From an uncultured Thermoanaerobaculia bacterium (GTDB lineage: Bacteria > Acidobacteriota > Thermoanaerobaculia > Multivoradales > Multivoraceae), in assembly GCA_951812325.1 (NCBI GenBank), contig OX638294.1, positions 1,138,527-1,202,526 of the forward strand: a stretch of DNA of 64,000 bases. Direction: 5' to 3'. Shown piece by piece: positions 11,820-36,398 of this stretch. Position 1 is the stretch's first letter. Each line of letters opens with the position of its first letter. A program made the position numbers and the translations under genes. The notes beneath the pieces were generated by a model. It made no database searches, was not told the DNA's origin, and saw nothing but the letters and a program-made list of their open reading frames with translations.

Positions 11820-13358
11820 TCACTGCTCCACGACTTCCAGACTCACCGGATCGCGCACCGGCAGCATGGTAACCCTGCCTCCGAGCTTCGCCGCAACGTC
11901 CGCCATCGTCGCGCGACCGTCGCTGTCACCCGGCTCGATCGCATCCCAATCGCCGACGACCAGCATGACGAGCCGGTCGGGCGAGAGGTAGCGCTCCGCC
12001 ACCCGCTGCACGTCGGCCGGCGTCACCGCCTCGACGCTCTCCCGATACGTCCCCCAGTAGCTGTGCGGCCGGCCCAGAAACTCGTCCTGCGCGAATATCT
12101 CGGCCACGGCCAGGGCCGAGTCGAACTCGTTCGGGAAGGTCTCGATCGCGGCCGCCTTGACCGTCCGGAGCTCGTCGTCCGAAACCGGCTCGGCCCGGAT
12201 GCGGTCGATCTCCTCGAGCGCGATCTTCGCCGCCAGAGCCACCGTTTCGCTCTTCGACTGGAAGGTGACGCTGAGATTGTCCGGCCAGTAGTTGCCGATA
12301 CCGAAGCGGGAGTAAGCGCCGTAGGCCAAACCCTCGTCCGAGCGGATCCTCTTCATCAACCGGGTCGTGAAGCCGCCGTTGCCGAGGACACCGTCCATCA
12401 TCGCCAGAGCGAAGTGATCCGGGTCACTCCAGCCCTGGCGCTGCAACGTCCGGTGGCCGATCTGCACCCGGCCCTGCGGGACGTCCTGCCGGGCAACGTA
12501 GACCCCCGCAGCGGGCTCATGCCCCGCGGCCTGCGGCGGCCACGGCGCCTGTCGCCGCCCTTCGCCGCCGAAACGGTCGAGCAGCGCCGACAGCCGGGCG
12601 GCGAGTTGGTCGGCGTCGAAGTCGCCGGCCGCCGCGATGACCATGTGCGCCGGATGGACATGGCTGTTGTGGAACTCAGCGAGGTCCGGCTGCCCGATCG
12701 CCGAGAGCGAGGCCGCCGTGACGAACCGGGACTCGACGTGATCCCGCCCGTAGAGCAGCCACTGACCCTCCCTGCCCGCGACATCGATCGGATCGTCATT
12801 GCGCTGCTTCAGTTCCTCCAGCTCGTTCTGCTTCGCCAGGTCGAGTCGGTCGGCATCGAAGCGAGGTTCGCTGAGCATCGAGAAGAACAGGTCGAGACAC
12901 TCGTCGAGCACCGTGGTCAGGCAGTTCATCGACATCCGGGCGCTCGTGCTCCCGATGGAGGACGAGAAGTCCCCGGCTATCGCTTCCACCGCCTCGTCGA
13001 AGGCCTTCGCTTCGAGTTCGCCGGCGCCGCCGGTCCGCATCAGGGCGCCCGTGAGGCCGGCCAGCCCCGCCTGCTCCACCGGCTCCAGGTAGGCGCCGAT
13101 CCGCAGACGCACCGTGACGTCGACCAGGGGCAGCGAGCGGTCCTCCACCAGGTAGGCCGGAACGCCCCCCGCGAGCTCGCGCCGGTAGGAGTCGGCGCCG
13201 GGCAGCTCGAAGTCGAGCGGACCGTAGGTCAATCCGGTCGGGTGATCAACGATCCCGGCGCCGTTCTGGGCACTGCCGGGGGCGGTCAGCCCGATGAGGA
13301 GGGCCAGGACGAGGAGAGCAGGAAGGGAGAGAGTACCCGGTTGCCGGCGGCCGATCAT
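11820..13358 (-). CDS. M16 family peptidase, non-catalytic-type subunit (lacks HxxEH)
   Basis: 512 aa with a signal peptide and the M16 fold pattern (ICT_IPR insulinase-like) but no inverzincin motif. Its start overlaps the upstream M16 gene by 4 nt (ATGA). Confidence 0.75.
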   Translation of the reverse strand: MIGRRQPGTLSLPALLVLALLIGLTAPGSAQNGAGIVDHPTGLTYGPLDFELPGADSYRRELAGGVPAYLVEDRSLPLVDVTVRLRIGAYLEPVEQAGLAGLTGALMRTGGAGELEAKAFDEAVEAIAGDFSSSIGSTSARMSMNCLTTVLDECLDLFFSMLSEPRFDADRLDLAKQNELEELKQRNDDPIDVAGREGQWLLYGRDHVESRFVTAASLSAIGQPDLAEFHNSHVHPAHMVIAAAGDFDADQLAARLSALLDRFGGEGRRQAPWPPQAAGHEPAAGVYVARQDVPQGRVQIGHRTLQRQGWSDPDHFALAMMDGVLGNGGFTTRLMKRIRSDEGLAYGAYSRFGIGNYWPDNLSVTFQSKSETVALAAKIALEEIDRIRAEPVSDDELRTVKAAAIETFPNEFDSALAVAEIFAQDEFLGRPHSYWGTYRESVEAVTPADVQRVAERYLSPDRLVMLVVGDWDAIEPGDSDGRATMADVAAKLGGRVTMLPVRDPVSLEVVEQ

Positions 13359-15181
13359 TGCGCTTCTCCTTCGTCTTCCTGCAGTTCAGCGAGCCGTGCC
13401 TCTACCACACCCCGCATCCAGTCGAGCGCAGGCCGCATGTCTTCGGGCACCTGAGCCGCCTGGGCATCGATCTGCTGCAGAACCGCCTCCAGCTGGACCG
13501 GGTCCCCGAGCTCCCGGATCGCCGCCGCATCGGACATGAGAGCCGTCCGCATCTCCGGCGGCAGGGCCTGCAGCTCGGCGGGAATGTCCCGGGCCTCGGT
13601 GCCCGCCTTGCGGTAGTACAGGCTGACCAGCCGCTTCGACGGCTCGAAGTACTTCGCCGCCACCCGCTGCACGTCCTCGGCAGTGACCTGATTCGTACGC
13701 TCCGCGACCGTGTTCAGGTAGCGCCAGTCGCCCATCGAGTCCATGATCGCCAACTGGATCATCAGGAAGAACGGCTCCCGAAGTTGACGGTAGGTGTCGG
13801 CCGACACGCGGTTCCTGACCTTGGCCAACTCGTCTTCCGGAACCGGCTCGGCGATCAGGTTCGCGACGATCCCGTCCCAGGCGGCCAGCAGCTGCTCGGG
13901 TGTGGCGGCGCCCTTCGTCTCGGCGCGCAGATTGAAGACGCCCGCGTACTTCCTGGGTTCGTGGAACGCGCTGGCGCTGGACGCGATCTCGGCGCCCTCG
14001 ACCATCTCCTCGTACAGACGGCCGGTGCGGCCGTTGAGCACACCCGCGATCACGTCGAACGCATACCCGTCGGCGTGGCCGAACGGCGCCGCGTGGTAGC
14101 GAATCTGAAGTTGCGGCTGGCAGTCGCACTCCGCGGTGAGCCGCTTCTCGGCCAGCTGCTCGGCCTCAAGCGTCACGACATCCGGAACCTCCCGGGCACT
14201 CCGCTCCAATCGACCGAAGTAGCGTTCCGCGAGTTCCCTGACCTCGGCCGGATCGAAGTTGCCGACCAGAATCCCGGTCAGGTTGTTCGGCGCGTAGTAG
14301 GCGGCGAAGAACTCGTCCGCCTGCGCCTTGCTGATCACCTCCAGGTCGGACGCCCAGCCGCCGACCGGCCAATGGTACGGGTGTGACTGCCAGAACATGG
14401 CGTCCGCCTGCTCGTCGTAGCGGCCCGTGGGCGTCGACTCGATGCGCAGGCGCCTCTCCTCATGGACCACGTCCCGCTCGGCGTAGAACTCCCGGAACAC
14501 CGGATTCAGCAGCCGGTCCGACTCGAGCCAGAACCAGAGTTCCAGCCGGTTCGCCGGCAGCTGGTTGATGTAGACCGTGAAGTCGTTGCTGGTGAAGGCG
14601 TTGATGCTCGTGCCGCCGCCATCCGCGTAGACCTTGTCCAGTTCATCCTTGACCATGAGTTCCCGCTGCTCCTCCACGAGCTCCTGGAACTCCGCGCGCA
14701 GGGCGTTCAGGGTGTCGGTGCGGTGGGCCGGGTCGTAGGGGTCGTCGATTTCGCCGAGCCTGAAGCGGCGGCGCTGCTCCCGCAATTCGGCGCGGATCTT
14801 CTCCTGAACCGCCTCCTGCTCCGCAATGATCTCGAGATCCCGCTCGATGTCCTTCGTGCCGATCGTGTGCGTCCCCTTGAACATCATGTGCTCGAAGAAG
14901 TGGGCGAGGCCGGTGATTCCCGGCCGCTCGTTCGCCGAGCCCACGCGGGCCGCCCATGCCGCCGCGACCGTGGTCAGCTCCGGGCGCCTCACGAGCAGGA
15001 AGCGCATCCCGTTGTCGAGCTCGAACTCCTCGACCGGCACCGCCGCCGCCGTCGCGTCCTGCGCCGCGGCGGCGCTGTGCGGGACGAGCGGCAGGACGAG
15101 CGCGAGCGCCGCCGCCGCCGCGACGCGGGCAAACCCGGATCCGGCTCCGCTGTTGGACAAGCTGTTGGACAATCTGCTCAA
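13355..15181 (-). CDS. M16 family zinc peptidase (pitrilysin-like), catalytic subunit
   Basis: 608 aa. Signal peptide. HFFEHMMFKGT carries the inverted zinc-binding HxxEH motif. Confidence 0.85.
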   Translation of the reverse strand: MSRLSNSLSNSGAGSGFARVAAAAALALVLPLVPHSAAAAQDATAAAVPVEEFELDNGMRFLLVRRPELTTVAAAWAARVGSANERPGITGLAHFFEHMMFKGTHTIGTKDIERDLEIIAEQEAVQEKIRAELREQRRRFRLGEIDDPYDPAHRTDTLNALRAEFQELVEEQRELMVKDELDKVYADGGGTSINAFTSNDFTVYINQLPANRLELWFWLESDRLLNPVFREFYAERDVVHEERRLRIESTPTGRYDEQADAMFWQSHPYHWPVGGWASDLEVISKAQADEFFAAYYAPNNLTGILVGNFDPAEVRELAERYFGRLERSAREVPDVVTLEAEQLAEKRLTAECDCQPQLQIRYHAAPFGHADGYAFDVIAGVLNGRTGRLYEEMVEGAEIASSASAFHEPRKYAGVFNLRAETKGAATPEQLLAAWDGIVANLIAEPVPEDELAKVRNRVSADTYRQLREPFFLMIQLAIMDSMGDWRYLNTVAERTNQVTAEDVQRVAAKYFEPSKRLVSLYYRKAGTEARDIPAELQALPPEMRTALMSDAAAIRELGDPVQLEAVLQQIDAQAAQVPEDMRPALDWMRGVVEARLAELQEDEGEAQ

Positions 15182-15554
15182 GAACGATCCCTCCTGACTG
15201 TGGTTCCCAGGCGCCGCCGCGCCAGGGCGTCGGCGCGGCGCCGGGACACTCTACCGTTTCGACCCGCACAAGAGCAACGCCCAAGACCGTTCCGAAGTCG
15301 GACTTCGACGACCGAATTCAGGCCACCGCTCCGGAATCCACTCCAGAATCGGCGACTCCGTGCCGGTACCGTTCTCAAGGTCCGGGAATAACGACCTCCT
15401 GCCCGCTCCTGCCCGCCCTCGGCGCAATGCACTGGACGCAGGAACCGCCCTGACGGCAACGGCACGGAGGATCGACATCCGCCCCGCGCCCGCCGCAGCC
15501 GCGCAGGCCGACGCGCTTCTTCAGACGGCAGCGACACGGCAGCGTCACGGAAGG

Positions 15555-15582
15555 TTGACATCCGCCCGGCGTCCGTCTATTG
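15555..15582 (+). promoter_or_regulatory. Sigma70-like promoter of groESL (TTGACA-N16-TATTGT)
   Basis: TTGACA at about 15555-15560 and TATTGT at about 15577-15582, spaced 16 nt apart, immediately upstream of the CIRCE element. Confidence 0.55.
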
Positions 15583-15609
15583 TCAGCACTCGCGCGGGAG
15601 GAGTGCTAA
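15583..15609 (+). promoter_or_regulatory. CIRCE inverted repeat (HrcA operator)
   Basis: TCAGCACTC-N9-GAGTGCTAA versus the consensus TTAGCACTC-N9-GAGTGCTAA (one mismatch). It lies about 105 nt upstream of groES. Confidence 0.85.
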
Positions 15610-15715
15610 CAGCGACCGCCTGAGCGCCGGCGATGCCGGCATCCGCAGTTTCGCACAGCACCTCAACGCCCGCCGCGAAGAACACAGCCCACCGACAACC
15701 AACACAAGGAGGAGT

Positions 15716-16009
15716 TTGCTGGTGAGTGTACGTCCGCTTCATGACCGGGTTCTCGTCAAGAGGCTCGAAGAGGAGGAGCAGGTCCGGGGAGGCATCATCA
15801 TCCCTGACGCTGCGAAGGAGAAGCCGCAGGAGGCCGAGGTAGTCGCCGTCGGTCCCGGCAAGGTACAGGACAACGGCGAGCGTTCCGCGCTCGACGTCAG
15901 CATCGGTGACCGCGTACTGATCGGAAAGTACTCGGGCAGCGACATCAAGGTCGACGACGAAGACATGGTCATCCTGCGCGAGGACGAGATCCTCGCGGTC
16001 GTGGAATAG
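15716..16009 (+). CDS. groES: Co-chaperonin GroES
   Basis: 97 aa: [17 protein letters not shown]...[30 protein letters not shown] ribosome-binding site upstream. TTG/GTG start. Confidence 0.95.
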
Positions 16010-17677
<1,668 letters not shown>

Positions 17678-17740
17678 GCCCTTCAGCATGGGCGACCGGC
17701 CTTCCCGGTCGAGCGCCCATCCGGGTCCTGCCGGAACGAA

Positions 17741-17771
17741 TCAGGGCGGCCCTTCGGGGCCGCCCTTTTTC
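17741..17771 (+). terminator. Rho-independent terminator of groESL
   Basis: GGGCGGCCC-TTCG-GGGCCGCCC followed by TTTTT. Confidence 0.7.
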
Positions 17772-17951
17772 CTATGCCGGGAGCGTTTGCCATCCAGGAG
17801 CCTGCTCCGCACGGGTCGCCAGCGCGCAGCCGGCAAGCGCCGGGGCCGACCACGGCAGCCGGGCCGCTCTGCCCCCGCTCCGGTGTTCTGACGCTGGTAT
17901 CGTCCCCTCGATCCACTCGACCGTCCGTCGAGAAGAGAGGCAATCCGCCCC

Positions 17952-19025
17952 ATGTCATCGGCTCCACACGATCAACCCGTCTGGCTCTGGTGGAGCGGCG
18001 GCAAGGACTCGGCGTGGGCCCTGCACACGCTGCGGAACGATCCGGAGTGGGAAGTGCGCGGGCTCGTGACACATGTCAACCGGCACAACGGTCGGGTGGC
18101 CATGCATGGAGTGCATCGACACATGATCGAGCGACAGGCGGCCGCGGTCGGCCTGCCGCTCCATGTGATCGAGTTCGACTGGGCGGCGTCCCGGAACGAT
18201 CACGACGCCGCCATCGAGGAGGGCCTCCTGCGCTGGTGCCGGGGCGGCCGGAAGTTCGTCGCCTTCAGCGAGCTCCTTCCCGGCCGTGCCATGCGACGCC
18301 GTTCGGCGCTTGTCGGCCGCATCGGACTCCACGCCGTGTTCCCGCTGCTCGGCCGCGACCCGGCCGACCACGCCGCGGAGATCCTGGAGGCAGGTTTGAA
18401 GGCCAGGGTGTGTTCCGTCGAATCGGACCGCCTGCCTGCCTGCCACGCGGGTTGCCGCTTCGACGAGGACTTCGTGGGGTCGCTGCCGCGAGGCGTCGAC
18501 CCCTGCGGCGAGGACGGCGAGTTCCACACGTTCGTCGAATGGGCGCCCGGGTGGTCGTCGCGGATTCCGACCGACGCTGGCGCCAGAATCGAGTGCTACG
18601 GCTTCGGATTCGCGGAGATCGTGGAGTCCTCTCGGGCGCCGCGGAAGGAAGAAGACCGCCGCCCCGGGACCGGCAACGACCCCTTCGGCTACTACGCCCG
18701 GCTGAGGAGGGTCCGCGAGCACGTCGATCAACATCTCGACGAGCCTCTCGACCTGCACGCTCTCGCGCCCGTCGCGGCGATGAGTGCCGGGGGGTTCGGC
18801 AGGTTCTTCCGCAAGGCCACCGGCCAGTCGTTCCACGATTGGCTCAACGAGCGCCGCCTCGAGCGGGCCGCCGTCCTCATCGGCGACCACAACGAACCGA
18901 TCGGGCGAGTGGCGGAGACCGTCGGTTTCGGTTCTGAACGAACGTTCCGGAGGTTGTTCCAGGGGAGATTCGGCTGTACTCCCTCGCGGTTCCGATCTCA
19001 GGCACGGGATACAGAAGCGGGATAG
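17952..19025 (+). CDS. Fusion protein: N-terminal PP-loop ATP pyrophosphatase (Dph6/MJ0570/DUF71-like, SGGKDS) and C-terminal AraC-family HTH domain
   Basis: N-terminal part: WLWWSGGKDSAWAL (the SGGxDS PP-loop) and a GEFHTFV motif, as in diphthine-ammonia ligase-like N-type ATP pyrophosphatases. C-terminal part, about 100 aa: LHALAPVAAMSAGGFGRFFRKATGQSFHDWLNERRLERAAVLI..ETVGFGSERTFRRLFQGRFGCTPSRFR, a canonical AraC HTH. It is a single uninterrupted 357-aa ORF. Confidence 0.65.
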   Translation: MSSAPHDQPVWLWWSGGKDSAWALHTLRNDPEWEVRGLVTHVNRHNGRVAMHGVHRHMIERQAAAVGLPLHVIEFDWAASRNDHDAAIEEGLLRWCRGGRKFVAFSELLPGRAMRRRSALVGRIGLHAVFPLLGRDPADHAAEILEAGLKARVCSVESDRLPACHAGCRFDEDFVGSLPRGVDPCGEDGEFHTFVEWAPGWSSRIPTDAGARIECYGFGFAEIVESSRAPRKEEDRRPGTGNDPFGYYARLRRVREHVDQHLDEPLDLHALAPVAAMSAGGFGRFFRKATGQSFHDWLNERRLERAAVLIGDHNEPIGRVAETVGFGSERTFRRLFQGRFGCTPSRFRSQARDTEAG

Positions 19026-19110
19026 ACGCGCCAGGCAGCCGCTCCAGACGGGTGGCAGTCCGGGACCGCTCTCGCCTCGATTCGCGGGCTCTTGCCACGG
19101 GCTGCCTAAG

Positions 19111-21077
19111 CCGAAGTTCTTGAGCTTCTGCGGCCCCGTGATGGTCGATAGTCGTTGCCAGGCTTGGGTTTGCGGGTTGTTGGCCGGTCGTTCGGGGGCG
19201 CATATCGTAGCCATGTAAAAATGAGAGAAGAGGTAGACAGTCACGACGATCTAGAGTACAATGCGAAGCCATGTACATCGAGAGCATACGCAACCGGAAC
19301 TCGCCGCCTGCCGTCCTGCTTCGAGAGTCCTACCGCGAGCACGGCAAGGTCAAGAAGCGCACACTCGCCAACCTCTCCAAGTGGCCGGACCATCTCGTCG
19401 AGGGGCTGAGGACCCTCCTCAGGGGCGGCGTCGCACTGCCGTCTCTCGATGCCGCCTTCGACATCGTCCGCGCCAGACCGCATGGACACGTTGCCGCCAC
19501 GCTCGGCGCCGCCAGACGGGTCGGTATCGAGCCCTTGCTCGACCGGAGGCGGTCGAGACAACGCAGCCTCGCGACCGCGATGATCGCCGCGCGCATCCTC
19601 GATCCCCGGTCCAAACTCGCGACCGCGCGAGGACTCGCGTCCGAAACGATCACTTCGACCCTCGGTGAAGAACTCGGTGTCGAGGAGGCGTCGGCCAGCG
19701 AGCTCTACGAGGCGATGGACTGGCTGCTCAAGCGGCAACCGCGAATCGAGCGGCGCCTGGCCAAGCGCCACCTCGAGGAAGGAGCCCTGGTCCTCTGCGA
19801 CCTGACCTCGGTCTACTTCGAGGGCTCGTCCTGCGAGCTTGCCGTGCACGGGTACTCCAGAGACCGCAAACGGGGCAAGGTGCAGATCACCTTCGGCCTG
19901 CTCTGCAACCAGGACGGCTGCCCCGTGGGGGTCGAAGTCTTCTCGGGCAATACCGCGGACCCCTCGACAGTGGCCGCGCAGGTGCACAAGCTCAAGGAAC
20001 GCTTCTCGCTGGACCGGGTGGTCATGGTCGGCGACCGCGGCATGATCACCGATGCGCGCATCAGGGAGGACCTCGACCCCTCCGGACTCACGTGGATCAG
20101 CGCCTTGCGGGCGCCGGCGATCCGCTCCCTGGCCGAACAGGGCCACCTGCAGCTGTCTCTCTTCGACGAGAGAGGCCTCGCCGAGATCAGCGCTCCGGAG
20201 CTCTTCCCCTCAGAGCGGCTGATCGCGTGCAGGAACCCCCTGCTGGCCGACGAACGCGCCCGCAAGCGCCAGGAACTGCTCTCCTCCACCGAGGTCCAGC
20301 TCGAAGCCATCGTCAAGGCCACACGGCGCCAGAAGAACCCCTTGCGCGGCAAGGTCAAGATCGCCGCACGCGCCACGCGCGCCCTCGACCGCTTCAAGGT
20401 CGCAAAGCACTTCGAAACCGAGATCGAGGACGACAGCTTCAGCTATCGCCGCAATCAGGCACGCATCGACGAGGAAGCCGCACTCGACGGCTTCTACATC
20501 ATCCGCACCAACGTCCCCGAGGACCAACTGACCGCGGCCGATGCCGTGCGCTCCTACAAGAGCCTCAGCCGCGTCGAACGCGCCTTCAGGAGCCTGAAGA
20601 GCGTCGACCTCAAGGTGCGGCCCATCTACCATCGACTCGACGACCGGGTACGCGCCCATGTCTTCCTGTGCATGCTCGCCTACTACGTCGAGTGGCACAT
20701 GAGGCGCGCACTCGCACCCCTGCTCTTCGACGACGAAGACCACGACCACAACACCCGATCACCCGTCCTGCCCGCCCGCAGATCGGCCACCGCCATGGCC
20801 AAGGTCAACTCAAGGCGAACCACCCACGGATTCCCCGTACACAGCTTCCAGACACTCCTCGCCGACCTCGCCACGCTCACACGCAACCGGGTCCGAATCC
20901 AGCAAGCCGGCGACTCCACTGCCGATCTGCTGGCCACGCCAACACCTCTTCAGAACCAGGCCCTCAAACTCCTGGGCGTGAAACCCTGAGGACACGTACC
21001 CAGTAGGCTGCAACCCCAAATCGACGAAAAACCCCACCACTACAGGGGATTCCTCGATTCCGCGCCGAGAACTTCGG
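19111..21077 (+). mobile_element. IS1634-family (IS4 superfamily) insertion sequence, about 1.96 kb, with imperfect terminal inverted repeats and a target-site duplication
   Basis: Left end CCGAAGTTCTTGAGC and right end GCCGAGAACTTCGG (reverse complement CCGAAGTTCTCGGC) are flanked by a duplicated CCTAAG / GCCTAAGCC (6-9 bp; the exact boundary is ambiguous). The uninterrupted target GGCGGCCTAAGCCGGAATCAGGTCT is present in the paralogous locus at about 26310-26336. Confidence 0.8.
19271..20989 (+). CDS. IS1634-family DDE transposase
   Basis: 572 aa. MYIESIRNRNSPPAVLLRESYREHGKVKKRTLANLSKWPDHLVEGLR is the hallmark N-terminus of IS1634/IS1549-type transposases. The DDE region is downstream. Confidence 0.9.
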   Translation: MYIESIRNRNSPPAVLLRESYREHGKVKKRTLANLSKWPDHLVEGLRTLLRGGVALPSLDAAFDIVRARPHGHVAATLGAARRVGIEPLLDRRRSRQRSLATAMIAARILDPRSKLATARGLASETITSTLGEELGVEEASASELYEAMDWLLKRQPRIERRLAKRHLEEGALVLCDLTSVYFEGSSCELAVHGYSRDRKRGKVQITFGLLCNQDGCPVGVEVFSGNTADPSTVAAQVHKLKERFSLDRVVMVGDRGMITDARIREDLDPSGLTWISALRAPAIRSLAEQGHLQLSLFDERGLAEISAPELFPSERLIACRNPLLADERARKRQELLSSTEVQLEAIVKATRRQKNPLRGKVKIAARATRALDRFKVAKHFETEIEDDSFSYRRNQARIDEEAALDGFYIIRTNVPEDQLTAADAVRSYKSLSRVERAFRSLKSVDLKVRPIYHRLDDRVRAHVFLCMLAYYVEWHMRRALAPLLFDDEDHDHNTRSPVLPARRSATAMAKVNSRRTTHGFPVHSFQTLLADLATLTRNRVRIQQAGDSTADLLATPTPLQNQALKLLGVKP

Positions 21078-21089
21078 CCTAAGCCGGAA

Positions 21090-21914
21090 TCAGGTCTGGA
21101 CCATCGTCTCCAGGTAGACGCCCTCGAGATCCGCCTGATCCAGGGCCTCCCGATCCAGGATGCGCTCCATCCTGCCCTTGCGCATGATGCCGACCCGGTC
21201 GCAGAGACTCTGCGCCCGGAGCAGGTCGTGGGTGCAGATCAGGATCGCGGCGCCGTCGCAACGCATCCCGTCCAGCAGGGTCAAAAGGTCCGCTGCCGCC
21301 TTCGGATCGAGACCTGACGTGGGTTCGTCCAGGAGAATCGCGGGCGCGCTGCGAATCACCGCCACCGCCAGACCGACACGCTGACGCATGCCCTTCGAGA
21401 ACCGGTCGACGCGCCGATCAAGGACATCCTCGGCCAGCCCCACACGAAGAAGCGCCTCGCGAACGCGGTCCCTGGTCGGCGACACTCGCTGGCCCACCGC
21501 GCTGAAGAACTCCGCGTTCTGCACCGCGGTCAACGCCGGGTAGAGGGCCACGTTCTCGGGAATGAGGTCGAGGCGGCGCTTTGCTCTGCGAGGCTCGCGG
21601 GCGACCTCGATCCCGTCGATCAGGGCGCGGCCACCCGTGGGTCGGATGAAGTCGAGGAACATGTTGATCGTCGTCGTCTTGCCGGCGCCGTTCGGCCCCA
21701 TCATGCCGAGAATCTCTCCCGGCGCCACTTCGAAATCCACGCCGTCGACGGCAAGCGTGTCGAACAGCATCATCGGTACACGCTGCTCGTATGGAACGGA
21801 AACGATCGTCGGCTCCAGCAGCACGCCTTCCTGATGGCCGCGAACGGTCTTGAGGCTGACGATCGTGCCGACGGCAGCTCCGCCCGTCTCGCGGCGCGTC
21901 CTCCCGCTCACCAA
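21090..21914 (-). CDS. Chimeric ABC transporter ATP-binding protein (copy A). The ATPase lacks its native N-terminus and is fused to a fragment of the periplasmic-protein gene; possibly a pseudogene
   Basis: From AVDGVDFEVAPGEILGMMGPNGAGKTT to the C-terminus it is identical to the ATPase at 26337-27071. Residues about 17-50 (IVSLKTVRGHQEGVLLEPTIVSVPYEQRVPMMLFD) match an internal segment of the 27068-28606 protein. Walker A/B and the signature motifs are intact. Confidence 0.6.
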   Translation of the reverse strand: MVSGRTRRETGGAAVGTIVSLKTVRGHQEGVLLEPTIVSVPYEQRVPMMLFDTLAVDGVDFEVAPGEILGMMGPNGAGKTTTINMFLDFIRPTGGRALIDGIEVAREPRRAKRRLDLIPENVALYPALTAVQNAEFFSAVGQRVSPTRDRVREALLRVGLAEDVLDRRVDRFSKGMRQRVGLAVAVIRSAPAILLDEPTSGLDPKAAADLLTLLDGMRCDGAAILICTHDLLRAQSLCDRVGIMRKGRMERILDREALDQADLEGVYLETMVQT

Positions 21915-21935
21915 TCGCGAACCGGCCGCGGACGG

Positions 21936-23393
21936 TCATCGGCAGTCATAGCGCTGAAAGCGCAGGAAGGTGAACGCACCCGCCACGCCGACGAAGAGGA
22001 GCATCCACAGCTGGTCCTGAAGCGTCTGGGCCGCCAACTCCGCCGTGCTCGGCGGTCGCCAGACAAACCGGGGCATCTCGTCCGCGGGCGCCGGCACCTC
22101 CGAGTAGTCCAGCGTGCTCAGTGCTTGCAGCACGTACTCCTCGCCATCGTCGTCGGTCACAATGGCCTTGGCGCCGCTCCGGAACGCCGCCTCCCGGTGC
22201 AACTGGCGTTGGTTCAGCACGAAAGACGTGAACACCGGCTTGAACCCGGACAACTGGCGACGGAACTCCCTCCGCCCGGATGAGCCGGTAACCGCCAAGC
22301 GGTTCATCGCGCCGCGCACGAGAGTGTGGGGCGACAAAACGCCCCAACGATCGATCCACTCCTCCTGGGCGGCGAATTGCAGCAGATGCTGGCTGCGCAG
22401 CTCGGCATAACCCTCCTCCCTTTCCCGCAGGGCTGCTTCCTGGTCGACCCACATCTTCGACTCGAGATCCCGGATCCGGCGACGTTTCTCGGCGGAGGAA
22501 ATCTCTGGCGTGCGAACGATTTCCTGAAGCGGCATGGAGGAAACAGCCAGCCGCATTCGGTAGGCCTGCTGGTGAACGGAGATGTTCCGCTGGAACGTCA
22601 TCTCCGATTCGACCGGATGAAACACAGAGGCCAGAACAACGATGAGCCCCGGCACGGCCAAGGCCAGGAGCGACCATGCGCCGACCGCCCGCTGCAGAGC
22701 GGACTCGGGCATCGACGTACTCACCGAGGCCGCCATCCCGAGCAACACGTTGAAAAGCAGGAACACGACAAACTGCACCACGGCCAGGACCAGAACCAGC
22801 CCCTGCGAGGCAGTCGGAAGCAGACCACCGCCGATCACGGCAACCGCGAGTCCCGCGAGGACGCCGAGCACCAGGGATGCGGACACGACAAGGAAGCAAG
22901 CCAGCATCTTGCTCAGGATGAGTGGTACGCGCCCCGTTGGCCGACTCGCCAGGACCCGCAAGGTTCCGGCAGCCTTCTCCCCCGCCACCGCATCGAAACT
23001 CAGGGCTACCGCCATCAAGCTGTAGAAGAAGATGACGACCGCCGTCCAGTCAAGCGGTTCGGCGGCAAAGAGAAACGAGCGATCGGAAACCTCCGTCTCG
23101 AACACGTCGACGAGATGCGGACGAACGACTGCGGCTTCGCCCCACTGCTCCCTGGACCCGCCGCGCAGGAAACCCAGGGAAGGAGCCGGTCTGGGGACGA
23201 CGACCCGTTCCAGATTCGCGGTGCTCTCTGCCTTGTGCGCCAGCCGCGACCAACTGGAGCGCAGCTCCCGAACCTCGTCAAGGTGAATCAGCGTCGCGGC
23301 CACGATCAGCAGAGGACCGGCAACGAACAGCACCAAAAGCCGATAGCTGCGGAGGTACCTCGCGAGCTCCCAGCGAATCAGATGACCGAGCAC
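21936..23393 (-). CDS. ABC-2-type transporter permease with a large extramembrane domain (copy A, large permease; DUF3526-like)
   Basis: 485 aa, hydrophobic helices at both ends, paralogue of 28606-30060 (about 50% identity by eye). Tightly linked to the ATPase. Confidence 0.65.
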   Translation of the reverse strand: MLGHLIRWELARYLRSYRLLVLFVAGPLLIVAATLIHLDEVRELRSSWSRLAHKAESTANLERVVVPRPAPSLGFLRGGSREQWGEAAVVRPHLVDVFETEVSDRSFLFAAEPLDWTAVVIFFYSLMAVALSFDAVAGEKAAGTLRVLASRPTGRVPLILSKMLACFLVVSASLVLGVLAGLAVAVIGGGLLPTASQGLVLVLAVVQFVVFLLFNVLLGMAASVSTSMPESALQRAVGAWSLLALAVPGLIVVLASVFHPVESEMTFQRNISVHQQAYRMRLAVSSMPLQEIVRTPEISSAEKRRRIRDLESKMWVDQEAALREREEGYAELRSQHLLQFAAQEEWIDRWGVLSPHTLVRGAMNRLAVTGSSGRREFRRQLSGFKPVFTSFVLNQRQLHREAAFRSGAKAIVTDDDGEEYVLQALSTLDYSEVPAPADEMPRFVWRPPSTAELAAQTLQDQLWMLLFVGVAGAFTFLRFQRYDCR

Positions 23394-23419
23394 GCCCGCC
23401 TACCCGCCACCGCTTCGGC

Positions 23420-24676
23420 TCAGCAAACGTCCAGACGTTCAAGACCGACGCCAGCCGCGAGCAGCAGCGCGACGGTCCCGAAAGCGAGCGCTCCTGCCGG
23501 AAGGCTCGCCTGACGTAGGGAACTGCCGATGGAGACCGACTCGTGAACCGGCTCCGGCAAGCCCCCGATGTCGAGCGGCTCACCGTAAACCGACCGTTTC
23601 TCTCGCTCCGGGTAAAGAGCGAGTTTGCCGGCTTGCCAGGCAATGAAGGACCTCTCGGCCGAGTCGACCTGGCGCCGAAAGTGCTCGTGATCGGCGGGCG
23701 AGGTACCTGCCAGCACCTGACCGCCATCGAGAAAGGCGGTAAACGGCAGCAGCACCGCCAAGCGCCGGTAGTACCGATACGCCATAACCTGAATGTTCCG
23801 CCCCGCCATCGAGCGGTTCCGGTCCTCCTCAAGGTTCTCAACCCCGGCAACGACAGACGCCGACGCCACCGGAACGGTCGGCGCCAGCCGGGATGCCGCC
23901 CACCCGGCAAGCTGTGGGTAGAGCGCCGCAGAAAACGCCCACACCAGGACCCCCACCACGAGCGAGGTTTCCACCTGCCTGCAGACGACGGACAGCAGCA
24001 GAGAAAACGCCAGCCAGAAACAGCCGTAGAGCGCGACCAAGCCAAAGAAGAACCCTGCCCGCCACCACTCTTCCCCTTCCAGAGGCGGGCCGGCTCCGGT
24101 CGCCGCCCACACCAGAAAACCAAGCAACAACATCGAACACGGCAGGACCACGGTCAGCACGCCCCCGACGAACTCGCCCGTCAGCAGGGTCGACCGCGGC
24201 AGCCCTCTGGCCAGCTGCTGCTTGAGCGTGCCCTTCTCACGCTCGCCGTTGACCACCGCATGGCCGGCGACCAGGCATGAAAAGCCGAACACCAGCGCCA
24301 GCACCCACGCCAGATCCACGTTCAGGCGCCGCGCATCCTCCACCACCGGCCGATCCCGCCGCGTGATCCGAGGCTCACCAAACCGACCCGGAATCGCAGC
24401 CCTTGATCCCAACTGCTCTCCCACGCCTCGACTCAGGAGGCTGAGCACCGCCGGAGGCCGCTCCAGGCCAAGCTCGAGTTGCATGTAGACCTGAGCCCTC
24501 TCGAAAGACATCTGGCCGGCCAGACGGCTGGCCTCGAATAATCGAACCCGTTCCTGATAGTCGATCCAGGAAACCTGGACGGTTGCGCCAACCATCACGG
24601 CGCCAACGGCCCAAGTCCCCAAGAACCAACCGTTCTGCAGGCTCAGCCTGAGTCGCTTGAGCGCAACAATCCACAT
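23420..24676 (-). CDS. ABC-2-type transporter permease (copy A, second permease)
   Basis: 418 aa membrane protein, paralogue of 30067-31329 (MWIVALKRLRLSLQNGW.. versus MLRIALKRCRLSARSGW..). Confidence 0.65.
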   Translation of the reverse strand: MWIVALKRLRLSLQNGWFLGTWAVGAVMVGATVQVSWIDYQERVRLFEASRLAGQMSFERAQVYMQLELGLERPPAVLSLLSRGVGEQLGSRAAIPGRFGEPRITRRDRPVVEDARRLNVDLAWVLALVFGFSCLVAGHAVVNGEREKGTLKQQLARGLPRSTLLTGEFVGGVLTVVLPCSMLLLGFLVWAATGAGPPLEGEEWWRAGFFFGLVALYGCFWLAFSLLLSVVCRQVETSLVVGVLVWAFSAALYPQLAGWAASRLAPTVPVASASVVAGVENLEEDRNRSMAGRNIQVMAYRYYRRLAVLLPFTAFLDGGQVLAGTSPADHEHFRRQVDSAERSFIAWQAGKLALYPEREKRSVYGEPLDIGGLPEPVHESVSIGSSLRQASLPAGALAFGTVALLLAAGVGLERLDVC

Positions 24677-24767
24677 GGCCCTCAGTCCGCAGACGCCCCT
24701 CCCAAACCCCGGATCCCCAGCAACGGACCAAACTCGCAGGCTCTCTGGGGTTGACCCACTGAGTGGA

Positions 24768-25865
24768 CTACCGAATCCAGTCCGTCACCGGCGGAAGTTC
24801 TGCCCGCCAAAGCGACGAAAAACCAGTAAACCAAGCGACGCCATCCGCAACCGAGACGGATCCGAAACTGGCCTGGGCGCCGCGCTGCCTGAGAATCCCG
24901 AGCTGGCCTCCGGTCGGAGACAGAACGTACAACTCGCGGCCCCCTACAAGGCAGAAAACGAGGCCCGTCCGCGAGTCAACAGCCACACCCGTCAGCATGG
25001 GAAGCGCGTTGATTCCGTCGGTCGCCAGGTTCTCGGTGATCCAAGGCGTCCAGGCTTCCCGCTCTTGCATCGCCACGCCCATCAGGTCGCCAATAAGCCG
25101 ACCCCGAAGACGTGTCTGAAACTCAAGTTCCCCGTCAACCGAGTACCGAGAAACGACAGGAGCCGCCGTGAACGCTGCCACCAGGGCATCGGACGGCGCG
25201 ACCGCCATGACGACGCGGTTCAGTCGCACGGCGAAGCGCCGGTCTCGGCAGCGGCTGTGTTGATCGCAATCAGGATACACATCGCCCGGCCTCAGGAGTT
25301 CCCCGATCAGAAGTTGCCTGTCGCCGAGTGGCGAGTAGCGCACGATTACCGAACCTTGGCGAGGTTGATTCAGAAACATCCGGCCCTTTGAGTCAAGCGC
25401 AATCGAATAGCTGTGCCAAGCTTCGGCGTCGTCCGGCGTCGTTCCCTGCAAGACGGTGTCCAGAGAGCCACCGGTCCGAAGGGAATAGCCGTGGATGGAC
25501 ATCAGACCGGCGGTCGAAACCAATCGTACCGTATCCGCGCTTCCGACAGCGAAATCCATCGGAAAGCGCATCTCTCCCGGCCCCTGTCCGACGCGGCCGA
25601 GCTGCCGCTTGATCGCGCCAGATGCATCAAGATCAAGCAGGCGATGGTTCAATCGCTCCAGCAGGAGAAAACCATCATCATGAGGCGTCAGACGATAGGC
25701 GCCATTCACCGTCAGATCTTCAAAGACGCGAACCGGCTCAAAGGTTCCTTCCGGAACCTCTTCTGTTTCTTCTGACGCCGACGCAACCCTCGCCACAACA
25801 AACAGACAAAGTGACGCAAACGCCAAAAGAATGATGCGGCGCGCGCTACTGCCTGTGAGCATTTG
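24768..25865 (-). CDS. Secreted hypothetical protein (beta-propeller-like)
   Basis: Signal peptide MLTGSSARRIILLAFASLCLFVVARVASA chosen as the start, because the longer ORF start overlaps the upstream gene. No diagnostic motif. Confidence 0.45.
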   Translation of the reverse strand, partial: QMLTGSSARRIILLAFASLCLFVVARVASASEETEEVPEGTFEPVRVFEDLTVNGAYRLTPHDDGFLLLERLNHRLLDLDASGAIKRQLGRVGQGPGEMRFPMDFAVGSADTVRLVSTAGLMSIHGYSLRTGGSLDTVLQGTTPDDAEAWHSYSIALDSKGRMFLNQPRQGSVIVRYSPLGDRQLLIGELLRPGDVYPDCDQHSRCRDRRFAVRLNRVVMAVAPSDALVAAFTAAPVVSRYSVDGELEFQTRLRGRLIGDLMGVAMQEREAWTPWITENLATDGINALPMLTGVAVDSRTGLVFCLVGGRELYVLSPTGGQLGILRQRGAQASFGSVSVADGVAWFTGFSSLWRAELPPVTDWIR

Positions 25866-26163
25866 GCACCTCCAGTTCGTCTTCAATCGTCGACACCGCC
25901 TGCACCCGGCGGTGATACAGCAGAATCCCGAGACCTCCGCCGAACCCATGTTCAGCAGCCACATTCTGCCGGCCTTCGGAACTTTCAACTCTCCAGTCCG
26001 GCATCCGCTCGCCGTAAACCGCTACGGTCCCCGAAGGGCGCAGCATGTAGAACAACCAAGCGACGCTGACTAACGCACTCCCTACGACAAGCCCGCCGAC
26101 CAAGGACTCGCGCCAAGGGAACTTGTGACGGGGTCTGGCGTGGGGCATACGGTACTCAGCCAC
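25846..26163 (-). CDS. Small single-pass membrane protein, hypothetical
   Basis: 105 aa with one TM helix (LVGGLVVGSALVSVAWLFYML). Its stop overlaps the downstream start, suggesting translational coupling. Confidence 0.35.
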   Translation of the reverse strand: MAEYRMPHARPRHKFPWRESLVGGLVVGSALVSVAWLFYMLRPSGTVAVYGERMPDWRVESSEGRQNVAAEHGFGGGLGILLYHRRVQAVSTIEDELEVPNAHRQ

Positions 26164-26336
26164 TTGACTACAACGGTCGAGGAAGCCACGAGAAGGTCTG
26201 AGAAGAGAGTCTAGGGTCGGAGGCCTTCACCTGTCAAGTGCCAGAGCTGTCCAGCGTTCGGCGTTGCCCGGCTGCTGTTCGCTTCGTGACGAGGCCTCGA
26301 TTCGCGGACTCTTGCCGCGGGCGGCCTAAGCCGGAA

Positions 26337-27071
26337 TCAGGTCTCGACCATCGTCTCCAGGTAGACGCGCTCCAGATCCGCCTGATCCAGGGCCTCCCGA
26401 TCCAGGATGCGCTCCATCCTGCCCTTGCGCATGATGCCGACCCGGTCGCAGAGACTCTGCGCCCGGAGCAGGTCGTGGGTGCAGATCAGGATCGCGGCGC
26501 CGTCGCAACGCATCCCGTCCAGCAGGGTCAAAAGGTCCGCTGCCGCCTTCGGATCGAGACCTGACGTGGGTTCGTCCAGGAGAATCGCGGGCGCGCTGCG
26601 AATCACCGCGACCGCCAGACCGACACGCTGACGCATGCCCTTCGAGAACCGGTCGACGCGCCGATCAAGGACATCCTCGGCCAGCCCCACACGAAGAAGC
26701 GCCTCGCGAACGCGGTCCCTGGTCGGCGACACTCGCTGGCCCACCGCGCTGAAGAACTCCGCGTTCTGCACCGCGGTCAACGCCGGGTAGAGGGCCACGT
26801 TCTCGGGAATGAGGTCGAGGCGGCGCTTTGCTCTGCGAGGCTCGCGGGCGACCTCGATCCCGTCGATCAGGGCGCGGCCACCCGTGGGTCGGATGAAGTC
26901 GAGGAACATGTTGATCGTCGTCGTCTTGCCGGCGCCGTTCGGCCCCATCATGCCGAGAATCTCTCCCGGCGCCACTTCGAAATCCACGCCGTCGACGGCA
27001 AGCGTGCCGTCCTCGAACCTCTTCGTGAGTCCGATTGCCTTGATCACTGTCGACTCTCCAATGTGGGTCAG
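26337..27071 (-). CDS. ABC transporter ATP-binding protein (copy B, intact)
   Basis: IKAIGLTKRFEDGTLAVDGVDFEVAPGEILGMMGPNGAGKTT (Walker A), LSKGMRQRV signature, and ILLDEPTSGLD Walker B. The start is taken as the TTG/GTG just after the upstream gene's stop; the ORF track's longer start at 27152 overlaps that gene. Confidence 0.85.
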   Translation of the reverse strand: MTHIGESTVIKAIGLTKRFEDGTLAVDGVDFEVAPGEILGMMGPNGAGKTTTINMFLDFIRPTGGRALIDGIEVAREPRRAKRRLDLIPENVALYPALTAVQNAEFFSAVGQRVSPTRDRVREALLRVGLAEDVLDRRVDRFSKGMRQRVGLAVAVIRSAPAILLDEPTSGLDPKAAADLLTLLDGMRCDGAAILICTHDLLRAQSLCDRVGIMRKGRMERILDREALDQADLERVYLETMVET

Positions 27072-28606
27072 CGTCGGCTGAGGAGGATGCCGCCCCGGAT
27101 CAGCGCCGCGAGCAGCGCCACCACGGCAGCCAAAAGAAGCAACGCCAGCCACGGATTGCGGGCTGCCGTCACGTGAATGCGAACTGTCTTGGGATCGCTC
27201 TCCACCAGACGATCACCAGCCAGCGTGCCGACGACGATCGTCCCTTCGTAGTCCCCCAGGATCACGTCGGCGGGCGGCGCAAGCGTCACGTTGACCGCTT
27301 CGCCGGTGCCGGGGGCGAGCGCATCGAACAGCCGCGGTTCCGCTCCCACCCGCCAACCGAACGGCGCCTCGACAACGACTTCCACCTGCTCGAGATCCAG
27401 ACTGCCCGCATTGACGATCCTGACTTCGAACGAGCCGGTATCGCCGCGCAGAATCTCCTGGTAGAGGTTCGCCGCCTCGACCTCGAGCGCGGCGACACCG
27501 CGCGGAATGAGCTCCAGATCCAGCCTGCCCCCGCCTCCGGCCGCGTCACGGTCGGGCTCGAACAACACGGAGAACGGAATCGACGTGCCCGGCTGCACCG
27601 CAGCCGTCGGTCGACTCGGCAACGTCAGCGCCAGACGCAGACTGCGGCTGGTCACCCCCTCCGACAGGAACATCTGACTGAACGTCGCCTCGGTCTCGGG
27701 ATCAAAGAGCCGCGCCGCAACTTCGGGCGGAAGACCCTCAAGCCGCACTCCGTACGTCGCGTCATCGACGTCGAAGCGCTCCACCTCAAGGACGAACTCG
27801 GCCTCTTCACCCAGTTCAGCGTCCAGGGCAAGCTGAGCGGAACGCACGACCAAGGGTTCCTCGGCGCCGGATCGCTTGCCCAACAGGACCTGTCGATCGT
27901 GGGTCTGATGATTGTAGCGAAGCTCGACGAGCAACTCCTCGACATCGGCCAGAAGAAGTCCGAAGTCGACGGTGGTCGGTTCGTCGAACAGCATCATCGG
28001 TACACGCTGCTCGTATGGAACGGAAACGATCGTCGGCTCCAGCAGCACGCCTTCCCGATGACCGCGAACGGTCTTGAGGCTGACGATCACGTTCGATACG
28101 CCGGTCGGAAGCGGCAGGTCCAGCAAACCGCCCGACTGCTGCTCGACCACTTCCGCCTCGACGCCGGAGGACCAGCGCGCCACCAGCTCCAGTTCGACAC
28201 GGGCCTCGCCGTCGGGCCGCCTGTACTTCCGGGCCGCGCGCAGGACGACCTCGGGATCCGCCGCGATCATCTCCAGATAGGCTTGTGCCAGATCGAGATC
28301 CGCGAGCCTGAGCTGCGCTTTCTCCGTATCCAGCTCCGCCTCGGAGAGCAGCTCGTTCTCGAACAGCTCCTCGGCGCGACCGAGCTGCTTCTCGGCTTCC
28401 TCGTACCTGATCCGGGCAGCCGCGTACTCGAGGCCAAGCCGACCCGAAGCCTCCGTCTGACCAGGCGCCGGCCCCGCCGCCGCGACGATCAGGAGGGCGG
28501 TAGCGGCCAGGCCCGCGAAACCGTCCCGGCGCCGCCTGAACCTGGCGGGCCAGGCCGCCTGGGGCCTGGCGGTAGCGGCGGCCGTTCGATCAAGAGCGGC
28601 GGGCAT
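27068..28606 (-). CDS. Periplasmic protein with N-terminal coiled coil, beta-sandwich-like repeats and a C-terminal TM anchor (component of the transporter locus)
   Basis: About 512 aa from the MMPAALDR start. There is an N-terminal signal/TM segment, a coiled-coil stretch (EEAEKQLGRAEELFENELLSEAELDTEKAQLRLADLDLAQ), and a C-terminal hydrophobic helix (WLALLLLAAVVALLAALI). It is absent from copy A apart from the fused fragment. Confidence 0.55.
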   Translation of the reverse strand: MPAALDRTAAATARPQAAWPARFRRRRDGFAGLAATALLIVAAAGPAPGQTEASGRLGLEYAAARIRYEEAEKQLGRAEELFENELLSEAELDTEKAQLRLADLDLAQAYLEMIAADPEVVLRAARKYRRPDGEARVELELVARWSSGVEAEVVEQQSGGLLDLPLPTGVSNVIVSLKTVRGHREGVLLEPTIVSVPYEQRVPMMLFDEPTTVDFGLLLADVEELLVELRYNHQTHDRQVLLGKRSGAEEPLVVRSAQLALDAELGEEAEFVLEVERFDVDDATYGVRLEGLPPEVAARLFDPETEATFSQMFLSEGVTSRSLRLALTLPSRPTAAVQPGTSIPFSVLFEPDRDAAGGGGRLDLELIPRGVAALEVEAANLYQEILRGDTGSFEVRIVNAGSLDLEQVEVVVEAPFGWRVGAEPRLFDALAPGTGEAVNVTLAPPADVILGDYEGTIVVGTLAGDRLVESDPKTVRIHVTAARNPWLALLLLAAVVALLAALIRGGILLSRR

Positions 28607-30060
28607 CATCGGCAATCGTAGCTTGCGAAGCGCCGGGCGACCCATCCGGTTGCACCCGCCACGAAGAGCACCATCCATAGAACGTCTCCCACCGTCTGGT
28701 TCACCAGTTCTCCCGGCGATGGCCGGCGCCAGGCGAACCGCGGCCCCTCGCCGGGCCGTATCGGGAGCGCCGCGTAGGACAGGCCCGTGATCCCGCGCAG
28801 TCGGTATTCCTCGCCCTCCGCGTCCTGGATCAAGGCCATCGCCACGCCTTCGCCCGCTTCATCGCGTCGCTGTCGTCTCTGGTCGATCACGAACTCGGTG
28901 AAGGTCGGCTCGAACCGGTCGACCTGCCGCAGGAACTCCCTCTCGCCGCTCCACCCGGCAAAAGAAAGCCGATCCAGCGAGCGGCGCAGCAGACTGAACG
29001 GCGAGAGAGCGCTGAACTTCTCCGTCCATGTCCGTTGCGCCGCCGACTGGCGCAGATAGTCGCGACGCACTTCCGCCAGGGCTCGCTCCTGCTCCGCCAG
29101 GGCGGCTTCCTGATCCGCCATCATGTCGGCTTCGAGTGACGCGATCCGGGCACGCTTCTGAGCCGGCGAGAGGTCCTCCCTGTTCACGATCCCGGCGAGC
29201 GCCTCAGACGAGACCGAGAGCCGTTCCCGGAACTCCATGGACACGAGCCCGAAGTTCCGCTGCAGTTCGGCCTCCGATTCCAGCGGATGGAGCATCGAGC
29301 CCGCCACCGTGACGCCGGCCGGCACGACCAGCGCCAGAACCGTCCAGGCGCCCAAAGCCCTCTGCAGCGCGGCCGCCGGTCGAGCGACGCTGACCGATGC
29401 GGCCACTCCGAGCAGCACGTTGAACAGGAGAAACACGAGCACCAGCATGACCGCCAGGACAAGGTTCGGAGCTGTCTCGGCGGAAAGGGAGCCGCCCCCG
29501 TCAACCGCGACCACGGCAAGCGAGGCCACCGCACCGAGGACGAAGGAGAGGGCGACGACCAGGAAGCTGCCGGCGATCTTGCTCAGGATGAGCGACATGC
29601 GCCCGATCGGTCTGGCTGTCAACACCCGGAGGGTTCCCTGGGCCTTCTCGCCCGCCACCGCATCGTAGGTCAGAGCCACGGCCATCAGGCTGTATAGAAG
29701 GACGACGACAGCGGCCCAGTCGAGAGGCTGGGCGACGAAGACCCACGACCGCTCGGAAACACCCGGAATGACAGGCGCCGCCAGGTGGGGCCGCAAGACG
29801 GTTGCCTCCGTTCGATCGGCGCCGTCGGCCGAAACGAAACCCAGAGTCGGGTACGGCCGCGGCAGGAGGACCCAGTCCAGATTCGCGTCGCTCTCCGCAG
29901 ACCGGGCGAGACGCGAGTAGGCGGACACCTGCTCCCGCAGGTCGATCTGGTGGATCGTCGCGGCGACGACCATGCACAGGGGGCCCGCCACGACCGCCAG
30001 CAGCAGCCTGTAGCTCTTGAGATGGCGAGTCAGTTCGCCAAGAACCAGGACACGGAACAT
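28606..30060 (-). CDS. ABC-2-type transporter permease with a large extramembrane domain (copy B)
   Basis: 484 aa, paralogue of 21936-23393. Confidence 0.65.
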   Translation of the reverse strand: MFRVLVLGELTRHLKSYRLLLAVVAGPLCMVVAATIHQIDLREQVSAYSRLARSAESDANLDWVLLPRPYPTLGFVSADGADRTEATVLRPHLAAPVIPGVSERSWVFVAQPLDWAAVVVLLYSLMAVALTYDAVAGEKAQGTLRVLTARPIGRMSLILSKIAGSFLVVALSFVLGAVASLAVVAVDGGGSLSAETAPNLVLAVMLVLVFLLFNVLLGVAASVSVARPAAALQRALGAWTVLALVVPAGVTVAGSMLHPLESEAELQRNFGLVSMEFRERLSVSSEALAGIVNREDLSPAQKRARIASLEADMMADQEAALAEQERALAEVRRDYLRQSAAQRTWTEKFSALSPFSLLRRSLDRLSFAGWSGEREFLRQVDRFEPTFTEFVIDQRRQRRDEAGEGVAMALIQDAEGEEYRLRGITGLSYAALPIRPGEGPRFAWRRPSPGELVNQTVGDVLWMVLFVAGATGWVARRFASYDCR

Positions 30061-30066
30061 CGTTCT

Positions 30067-31329: not shown

Positions 31330-31753
31330 TCGCGTTCTTCCAGCAAGTCAGGGCGAAAGGCGCGATGGCCCTTTGGCGTCTCCTCCCTGGAGGTTGTCGT
31401 CAATGGAGGTGGATACAACCGCACACGGTTGGCTTTGCCTGGCGCCGCCGCCTTGCGAGCTGGCGAGTCCGCTGAATCGATCAGCGAGTCCGTCAGCGCG
31501 TTCCGCGTGTTGGGCATCGGTCACAAGAAACAGGCTAGCCGAGCGCCGCAGTCGGCAATAGGGCCCTCAGACGACCAAAACCGGACACCAGAGAACCAGA
31601 AACGGCCAATCCGGTACCCGGCGCCGGTTTGCTGGCCGAACCACCCGGACCGTTTCCGCCGCCGCGGCGCCGACCGTGACGCCCATCGCTCCGGGATGGA
31701 GCAAACCGAGAGTGGCGATGGTCAAGGGATCGCCTGTCGCCGTTCGGCCGGCG

Positions 31754-36362: not shown

Positions 36363-36398
36363 GACGGGTCAGCCGCCCTCACCGGAAGCAGGCCGCCA

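Follow-up and report, generated by a model that had tools for sequence, protein, structure and literature searches.

A single insertion sequence (IS) lies beside one of two related transporter operons in the genome of an uncultured Thermoanaerobaculia bacterium, and the locus raises the question of what exactly was inserted, into which sequence, and whether the element may still move. We analysed it within a window of 64,000 nucleotides from contig OX638294.1 (assembly GCA_951812325.1, positions 1,138,527 to 1,202,526); coordinates below count from the first letter of this window. An earlier note, made from the letters alone, had proposed an IS1634-family element at about 19111-21077 with a full-length 572-residue transposase, imperfect terminal inverted repeats and a target-site duplication of 6-9 bp, recently inserted into the 3' flank of one copy of a duplicated transporter locus whose other copy keeps the empty site. 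We conclude with high confidence that 19111-21077 is one complete copy of a multi-copy IS1634-family IS, inserted at the hexamer CCTAAG in noncoding sequence that separates two genes converging on the site.

Two comparisons set the ends of the element. The first uses further copies. L082 and L083, the DNA of two such copies in ENA assembly ERZ18545498, are each 1967 bp long and 99.7% identical, with 6 differences from the window copy, and both are unrelated to the window outside 19111-21077. They share identical end bases and carry 6-bp duplications of their own (GATAGC and GCTAGT). The element is therefore 1967 bp long and occupies 19111-21077 on the forward strand, exactly the limits that had been given as approximate, and the duplication is 6 bp. 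At the window copy a perfect direct repeat, CCTAAG, abuts both ends (19105-19110 on the left and 21078-21083 on the right). The left inverted repeat, CCGAAGTTCTTG, occupies 19111-19122 (+), and the right inverted repeat, identified by an inverted-repeat search and from the termini of relatives, occupies 21066-21077 (-) and reads CGAGAACTTCGG on the forward strand. Their outermost ten nucleotides (CCGAAGTTCT, 19111-19120, and AGAACTTCGG, 21068-21077) are complementary at 10 of 10 positions and at 11 of 12 when extended, with no match beyond that. Both termini read CCGAAGTT, which has C as its first base and TT as bases 7-8, and the terminus CCGAAGTTC is kept in about 60 related elements of other genomes.

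The same comparison settles the length of the target-site duplication. A 9-bp duplication, GCCTAAGCC, was considered and rejected, as the repeats measure 6 bp, and the termini read CC...GG, in L082, L083 and 42 relatives. An apparent repeat of 9-10 bp arises because the IS starts with CC and ends with G, mimicking the target context G-CCTAAG-CC; the lower figure of the earlier range thus stands and the upper one reflects coincidental end bases. The GC content of the IS (65-67%) equals that of its surroundings, so base composition is uninformative on foreign origin.

The second comparison comes from within the window, where an uninterrupted paralogous site survives at 26294-26366, as the earlier note had claimed. 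When the IS and one CCTAAG are removed, 19030-19110 joined to 21084-21140 aligns gap-free to this region, which holds one CCTAAG at 26325-26330; keeping both CCTAAG copies forces a 6-nt gap. The left flank (19074-19110, homologous to 26294-26330) shows 3 mismatches in 37 bp, and the right side is 99.3% identical over 685 bp. Self-BLAST gives 37 of 40 identical positions for 19074-19113 versus 26294-26333 and 99.3% identity for 21075-21762 versus 26322-27009. The alignment check suggested with the earlier note was run, and the flank is interrupted only by the IS and its 6-bp duplication. The insertion lies 12 bp beyond the stop codon of an ABC-2 ATPase gene that ends at 21090 (-), in a noncoding gap shared with a convergent regulator gene at 17952-19025 (+), which encodes a diphthamide-synthase-like domain fused to an AraC-type helix-turn-helix. 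No gene is interrupted, and the placement in the 3' flank of one transporter copy is correct. Disruption of a terminator by the IS was considered and is unsupported: the paralogous 3' flank is no more stably folded than its shuffled versions (z = -0.26), and a terminator scan found none at the insertion site.

The family assignment follows from the transposase and from the architecture around it. The gene (19271-20989, +) encodes the full 572 residues expected from the earlier reading, and it is the only frame in the IS with coding-type GC content at third codon positions (GC3, 0.83). NCBIfam model NF033559, for the IS1634 family, matches residues 28-571 over model positions 2-482 of 483 with 329.1 bits against a cutoff of 100, and Pfam DDE_Tnp_1 also matches. 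Models for the IS4, IS5 and IS982 families give only 16-21 bits, far under their cutoffs. In the strict IS4-family test, NF033592 scored 20.9 bits against a cutoff of 115, the R of the YREK motif is absent and the duplication is 6 bp; in the IS5-family test, NF033580 scored 16.7 bits against a cutoff of 110. The catalytic triad is D177 (in LCDLTS), D255 (in GDRGM) and E436 (in RVERAF), with a spacer of 181 residues between D255 and E436. Around the last of these the YREK-type motif reads Y429-K-S-L432-S-R-V-E436-x6-K443, with L432 replacing R; D177, D255, L432 and E436 are invariant in 50 of 50 distinct relatives. IS1634-family elements are described as 1500-2000 bp long, with a single open reading frame (ORF), ends of the form C-----YT, a YREK motif without R, 5-6-bp repeats and a long N3-C1 spacer (De Palmenaer et al. 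2008, PMC2266710). The element agrees in its model match, long D-E spacer, R-less YREK motif, length, C-----YT ends and repeat length, and the assignment made in the earlier note is borne out by these traits and by the NF033559 score. Relatives at about 69-70% identity carry the NCBI name 'IS1634 family transposase', the nearest protein cluster outside its own lies at 83% identity, and PDB chains gave no sequence match to the transposase. The element is a new member of a known family, and an ordinary one.

Likeness to the strict IS4 family, exemplified by IS50/Tn5 and IS10, is confined to the related DDE fold (Pfam DDE_Tnp_1) and the Y...E...K part of the C1 motif; those elements have duplications of 8-13 bp and a full YREK, whereas here we find 6 bp, L432 in place of R and the 181-residue spacer. 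The founding members of the IS1634 family, IS1634 of Mycoplasma mycoides and IS1549 of Mycobacterium smegmatis, share the transposase family, but they generate long direct repeats of variable length, 8-514 bp (PMC2266710), where this element and its clade have a fixed 6 bp. ISPfe2, an IS1634-family element of Paracoccus ferrooxidans, is reported to have been caught on trap plasmids and to transpose with 6-bp repeats (PMC3281130). It has one transposase ORF and 6-bp direct repeats, as here, and measures 1884 bp versus 1967 bp; its terminal repeats are given as 13/13 versus 10-12 here. It differs in forming the composite transposon Tn6097; the present element occurs just once in the window. ISPfe2, a family member with experimentally shown mobility, is a closer analogue than the founding members IS1634 and IS1549.

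We then asked where related elements land. A scan of species-representative genomes yielded 227 relatives, and the best 80, at 60-75% amino-acid identity, were analysed; none of the species-representative relatives is identical to the window copy, which places the source genome outside that set. These 80 reside in metagenome-assembled genomes (MAGs) labelled Candidatus Multivorans (Acidobacteriota, Thermoanaerobaculia), Longimicrobiales, Solibacteraceae, Spirochaetia and Alphaproteobacteria, and relatives are abundant, a genome often holding 5-12 of them. In 59 loci we were able to place both termini (CCGAAGTTC...GAACTTCGG), giving elements of 1920-1993 bp, and 42 of the 59 have a perfect 6-bp duplication. 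Together with those of L082, L083 and the window copy, these make 45 duplications with the consensus N-Y-T-A-R-N, which CCTAAG matches. T3 and A4 occur in 44 of the 45, Y2 in 43 and R5 in all 45, and 43 of 45 fit YTAR as a whole. The remaining 17 pairs are imperfect and still show NYTARN on both sides, the pattern that exchange between copies would produce. IS5 also prefers the tetranucleotide YTAR (CTAG, CTAA, TTAG), and it duplicates 4 bp. The likeness to IS5 is this preference only; here the duplication is 6 bp with YTAR at its centre, and the transposase is not IS5-like.

YTAR sites (CTAG, CTAA, TTAG and TTAA) are scarce in the window: the 25 observed fall about six-fold short of the 150 that a first-order Markov model gives, and base composition would give 403. 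Sequence outside stop-to-stop ORFs makes up 17% of the window and contains at least 13 of these 25 sites. TA dinucleotides in the window number 620, against 1612 expected. For 44 insertions we reconstructed the empty sites and called genes crudely, as stop-to-stop ORFs filtered by GC3. More than half of the insertions (26 of 44) are intergenic. In nine the site is no more than 7 nt away from a predicted stop codon; in 8 of these it coincides with the stop, and the duplication restores that codon. Another 4 have entered a stop-to-stop ORF by just 11-59 nt from its upstream end, a position that probably precedes the true start codon, and 5 are over 100 nt away from either end of a predicted ORF. 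The window copy, just past the ATPase stop, fits this pattern.

The noncoding sequence beside the termini carries several conserved signals. A sigma-70-like promoter (TAGACA-17 nt-TACAAT, 19234-19262, +) lies 8 nt before the ATG and is the sole such match in a promoter scan of 18900-21300. Both hexamers and their distance to the ATG are kept in most of 13 relatives, the first being TTGACA or TAGACA and the second TACNAT, while the surroundings are not conserved. A promoter ending 8 nt 5' of the start codon implies, and the sequence thus suggests, a leaderless or near-leaderless transposase mRNA. We also considered a 5' RNA structure that would hide the start codon from read-through transcripts and rejected it: RNAalifold on 11 relatives gave -0.86 kcal/mol and no covariation. 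Two subterminal boxes share one orientation and are set in flanking noncoding sequence that is not conserved among relatives. The first, GTAGCCATGTA (consensus GTAsCCATGTA; 19207-19217, +), is conserved in 10 of 11 aligned relatives and degenerate in the Spirochaetia element L060. The second, GTACCCAGTA (20996-21005, +), lies just past the stop codon and is present in 9 of 11, with a one-base variant in L057 and a degenerate form in L060.

A further candidate signal lies in the transposase itself. The pentapeptide QLSLF at residues 294-298 (20150-20164) is an exact match to the beta-sliding-clamp consensus; it is kept as QLS[LIV]F in most relatives, and Spirochaetia relatives have VAPSLF or VAQTMF. 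The C-terminus follows a conserved LQxxA[LF]xLL pattern, here LQNQALKLL at residues 560-568 (20948-20974). In culture, the copy number of an IS1634-family element of Acidiphilium sp. PM (transposase WP_007423974) went up from 1 to 3, and the transposase of this element uses a Q-x-x-hydrophobic-hydrophobic motif close to its C-terminus to bind the beta sliding clamp, as has been shown for other IS1634-family transposases through a C-terminal motif (PMC4549789). The perfect consensus here is internal, unlike the near-C-terminal motif of the Acidiphilium element, and the C-terminus reads LQNQALKLL. Clamp binding by the present transposase is only a lead.

These observations led us to propose, tentatively and at somewhat less than an even chance, that the subclade is a sequence-specific integrator. 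It would select the hexamer NYTARN, centred on a palindrome, which in its GC-rich hosts is about six-fold depleted and mostly noncoding, and so land between genes or on TAG and TAA stops that the duplication regenerates, a kind of 'safe landing'; its cofactors may include the boxes GTAsCCATGTA and GTACCCAGTA and the QLSLF motif. The literature searched, which did not cover ISfinder entries, holds no prior account of such targeting for the IS1634 family.

The search for other copies that the earlier note had recommended was productive and bears on whether the element is active. Six transposase variants are on record, at 99.5-100% amino-acid identity and all with the full 572 residues. Four of the six (P0001-P0004) lie on one contig of 4,634,923 bp, probably the source chromosome. 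The other two, P0005 and P0006, are the variants recovered as DNA in L082 and L083; they are confined to separate contigs of the same metagenome. A JGI metagenome scan for the same IS gave 0 matches, and self-BLAST of the 64-kb window found no second copy or solo end. Near-matches to the IS end sequence in the window number 10, against 1.8 expected, and include the true left end at 19111. The others are taken to be coding look-alikes; three of the nine were placed, one (6882-6896) within a long ORF, the other two inside the paralogous ATPase genes. Seven relatives (P0034, P0038, P0047, P0048, P0084, P0098 and P0106) sit on contigs of 1965-1968 bp, the size of the element itself. Such stand-alone contigs probably result from assembler collapse of multi-copy ISs, and they are an indirect sign that the clade is multi-copy in many samples.

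A second, near-identical assembly allowed us to follow this particular insertion. Its contig L001 covers 13339-24025 at 99.5% identity and carries the IS with zero differences; the insertion is therefore common to at least two near-identical genomes and not private to one. As many as 45 of the 53 differences between L001 and the window fall in 15.5-17.0 kb (15500-16999), within about 1.3 kb of groES/groEL, and only a handful are found in the other ~9 kb. This cluster at the chaperonin genes looks like a recombination patch.

Taken together with what is known of the family, these data suggest the following course. A DDE, IS4-related transposase would move the element by a 6-bp staggered cut, as family analogy indicates. 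It probably picks a YTAR-centred hexamer and cuts with a 6-nt stagger, here with insertion into CCTAAG between the regulator and ATPase genes. Transcription from the conserved promoter 8 nt 5' of the ATG probably gives a leaderless mRNA. Mobility probably persists; judged from sequence, continued activity is plausible because the ORF is intact, the catalytic residues are conserved, the ends are identical in three copies, the duplications are perfect and divergence is 0.3%. The occurrence of near-identical copies at different loci is indirect evidence of transposition. Since this GC-rich genome is strongly depleted in YTAR and has most of it in noncoding DNA, the choice of target may by itself direct insertions to gene ends.

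Several points weigh against this account. The intergenic bias could come partly or wholly from selection against gene-disrupting insertions instead of from target choice, and the intergenic statistic is built on crude gene calls, the GC3-filtered stop-to-stop ORFs. The empty allele of this exact locus was not found, with 0 matches in a JGI exact-pattern scan, and the sole other assembly with the locus, L001, also carries the IS. The copies are about 0.3% apart, so the last burst was not very recent. The last three points would also suit a fixed relic, structurally intact but silenced or stranded in a host lineage that no longer supports transposition: the insertion is common to two assemblies, the metagenome scan returned no empty allele, and each copy departs from the others at 6-7 sites, too many for a newly made daughter. 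We consider such a relic unlikely, though by no means negligible. All six variants keep 572 residues, and their 1-3 substitutions all lie away from D177, D255 and E436. Over their terminal 25 nt the three copies known as DNA show no difference, each of them has a perfect duplication, and the restriction of P0005 and P0006 to separate contigs of the same metagenome suggests that co-existing strains differ.

The age of the insertion depends in part on the history of the transporter locus. Two tandem ABC-2 operons are indeed present (21078-24676 and 26325-31350), but their permease genes are only 68-71% identical, with the exception of one patch at 99%, which qualifies the duplication assumed in the earlier note. 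This patch spans the ATPase gene, its 3' flank (99.3% over these two) and a 106-bp fragment of a neighbouring gene. The copy 1 ATPase gene (21090-21914, -; Pfam ABC_tran) is chimeric, and the copy 2 gene (26337-27152, -; identified by Pfam and self-BLAST) has a canonical N-terminus. In copy 1, residues 17-52 match, in frame, residues 197-232 of the copy 2 NEW3-domain protein (27068-28678), with 34 of 36 identical, and the DNA concerned (21759-21914 versus 27983-28088) is 98% identical. Relative to copy 2, copy 1 lacks 973 bp (27010-27982), together with the ATPase's own start codon and the canonical N-terminal strand (VIKAIGLTKRFEDG in copy 2). The chimera implies that the source of the 99% patch was an arrangement of the copy-2 type, and that the deletion either followed or accompanied the formation of the patch. 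The contrast in identity between patch and permease genes points to a recent gene conversion or partial re-duplication.

In an alternative reading, the likeness of the IS flanks to 26294-26366 is itself the product of gene conversion between the transporter copies after the IS arrived, in which case the paralog would be silent on age. The contrast between operons at 68-71% and a patch at 99% fits this idea, as does the distribution of differences within the patch, with 6 in the 86 bp nearest the IS site and 2 in the other 636 bp (Fisher p = 0.006, left flank versus right patch). Divergence is about 7% within ~50 bp of the insertion site versus 0.3% further in. A conversion tract that crossed the site after insertion would, however, have erased or copied the IS, and we rate this explanation as somewhat improbable. 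It touches the dating argument only: the target, the 6-bp duplication and the ends are independently fixed by L082, L083 and the clade consensus. Because the differences cluster at the IS site, we take the paralog as a witness to the target sequence and not to the date of insertion. The earlier claim of a recent insertion thus keeps its reconstructed target but loses most of its support for age, given this clustering and the sharing of the insertion with L001.

The wider locus shows whether the IS could belong to something larger. In L084 and L086, the two closest genomes found to carry the regulator gene (82-83% amino-acid identity), M16 peptidases, groES, groEL and the regulator come in the same order as in the window; next to the regulator is a DUF1932 gene, beyond which the sequence matches the window from 31640 onward. 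A block of about 12.6 kb in the window (~19010-31640), comprising the IS, both ABC-2 operons and a beta-propeller gene, is without counterpart in either genome. The IS sits at the left border of this block and could in principle be the edge of a composite transposon or IS-bounded island. In support, the 12.6-kb block has no counterpart in L084 and L086, and IS1634-family elements can form composite transposons, Tn6097 being an example. Against this stand the single IS, directly bracketed by its own perfect 6-bp duplication, the continuity of both flanks with the paralogous site, which is the mark of simple insertion into pre-existing DNA, and the absence from the window of a second copy or solo end; near 31.6 kb there is no remnant of an IS end, and no matching 6-bp repeat brackets the 12.6-kb block as a whole. 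Further, the comparison genomes are only ~80-88% identical, a distance at which a block may be gained or lost by many routes. A larger unit is thus very improbable, and we interpret the locus as a lineage-specific block with a simple insertion at its edge, not as a composite transposon, because the IS has its own duplication and no second copy lies in the window.

Other repeats in the window lie away from the IS. At 35183-35535, in an oligopeptide ABC-ATPase region, we found a 177-bp tandem duplication (97.7% identical) that is single-copy in L084. Self-BLAST further revealed an 84-bp pair at 36396-36479 and 40440-40523 (97.6%), a ~1.1-kb pair at 42973-44047 and 45156-46218 (66%), a ~390-bp tandem pair within 49325-50144 (78%) and a cluster of short tandem repeats at 51029-51629.

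The identification of a complete IS1634-family insertion leaves the current understanding of insertion sequences unchallenged. For annotation it supplies a cleanly delimited new IS, of use for repeat masking and for strain tracing in metagenome-assembled genomes. The clade to which it belongs is a likely driver of rearrangement in its host MAGs. The NYTARN rule is a modest addition: it predicts landing sites and may explain why most copies harm no gene.

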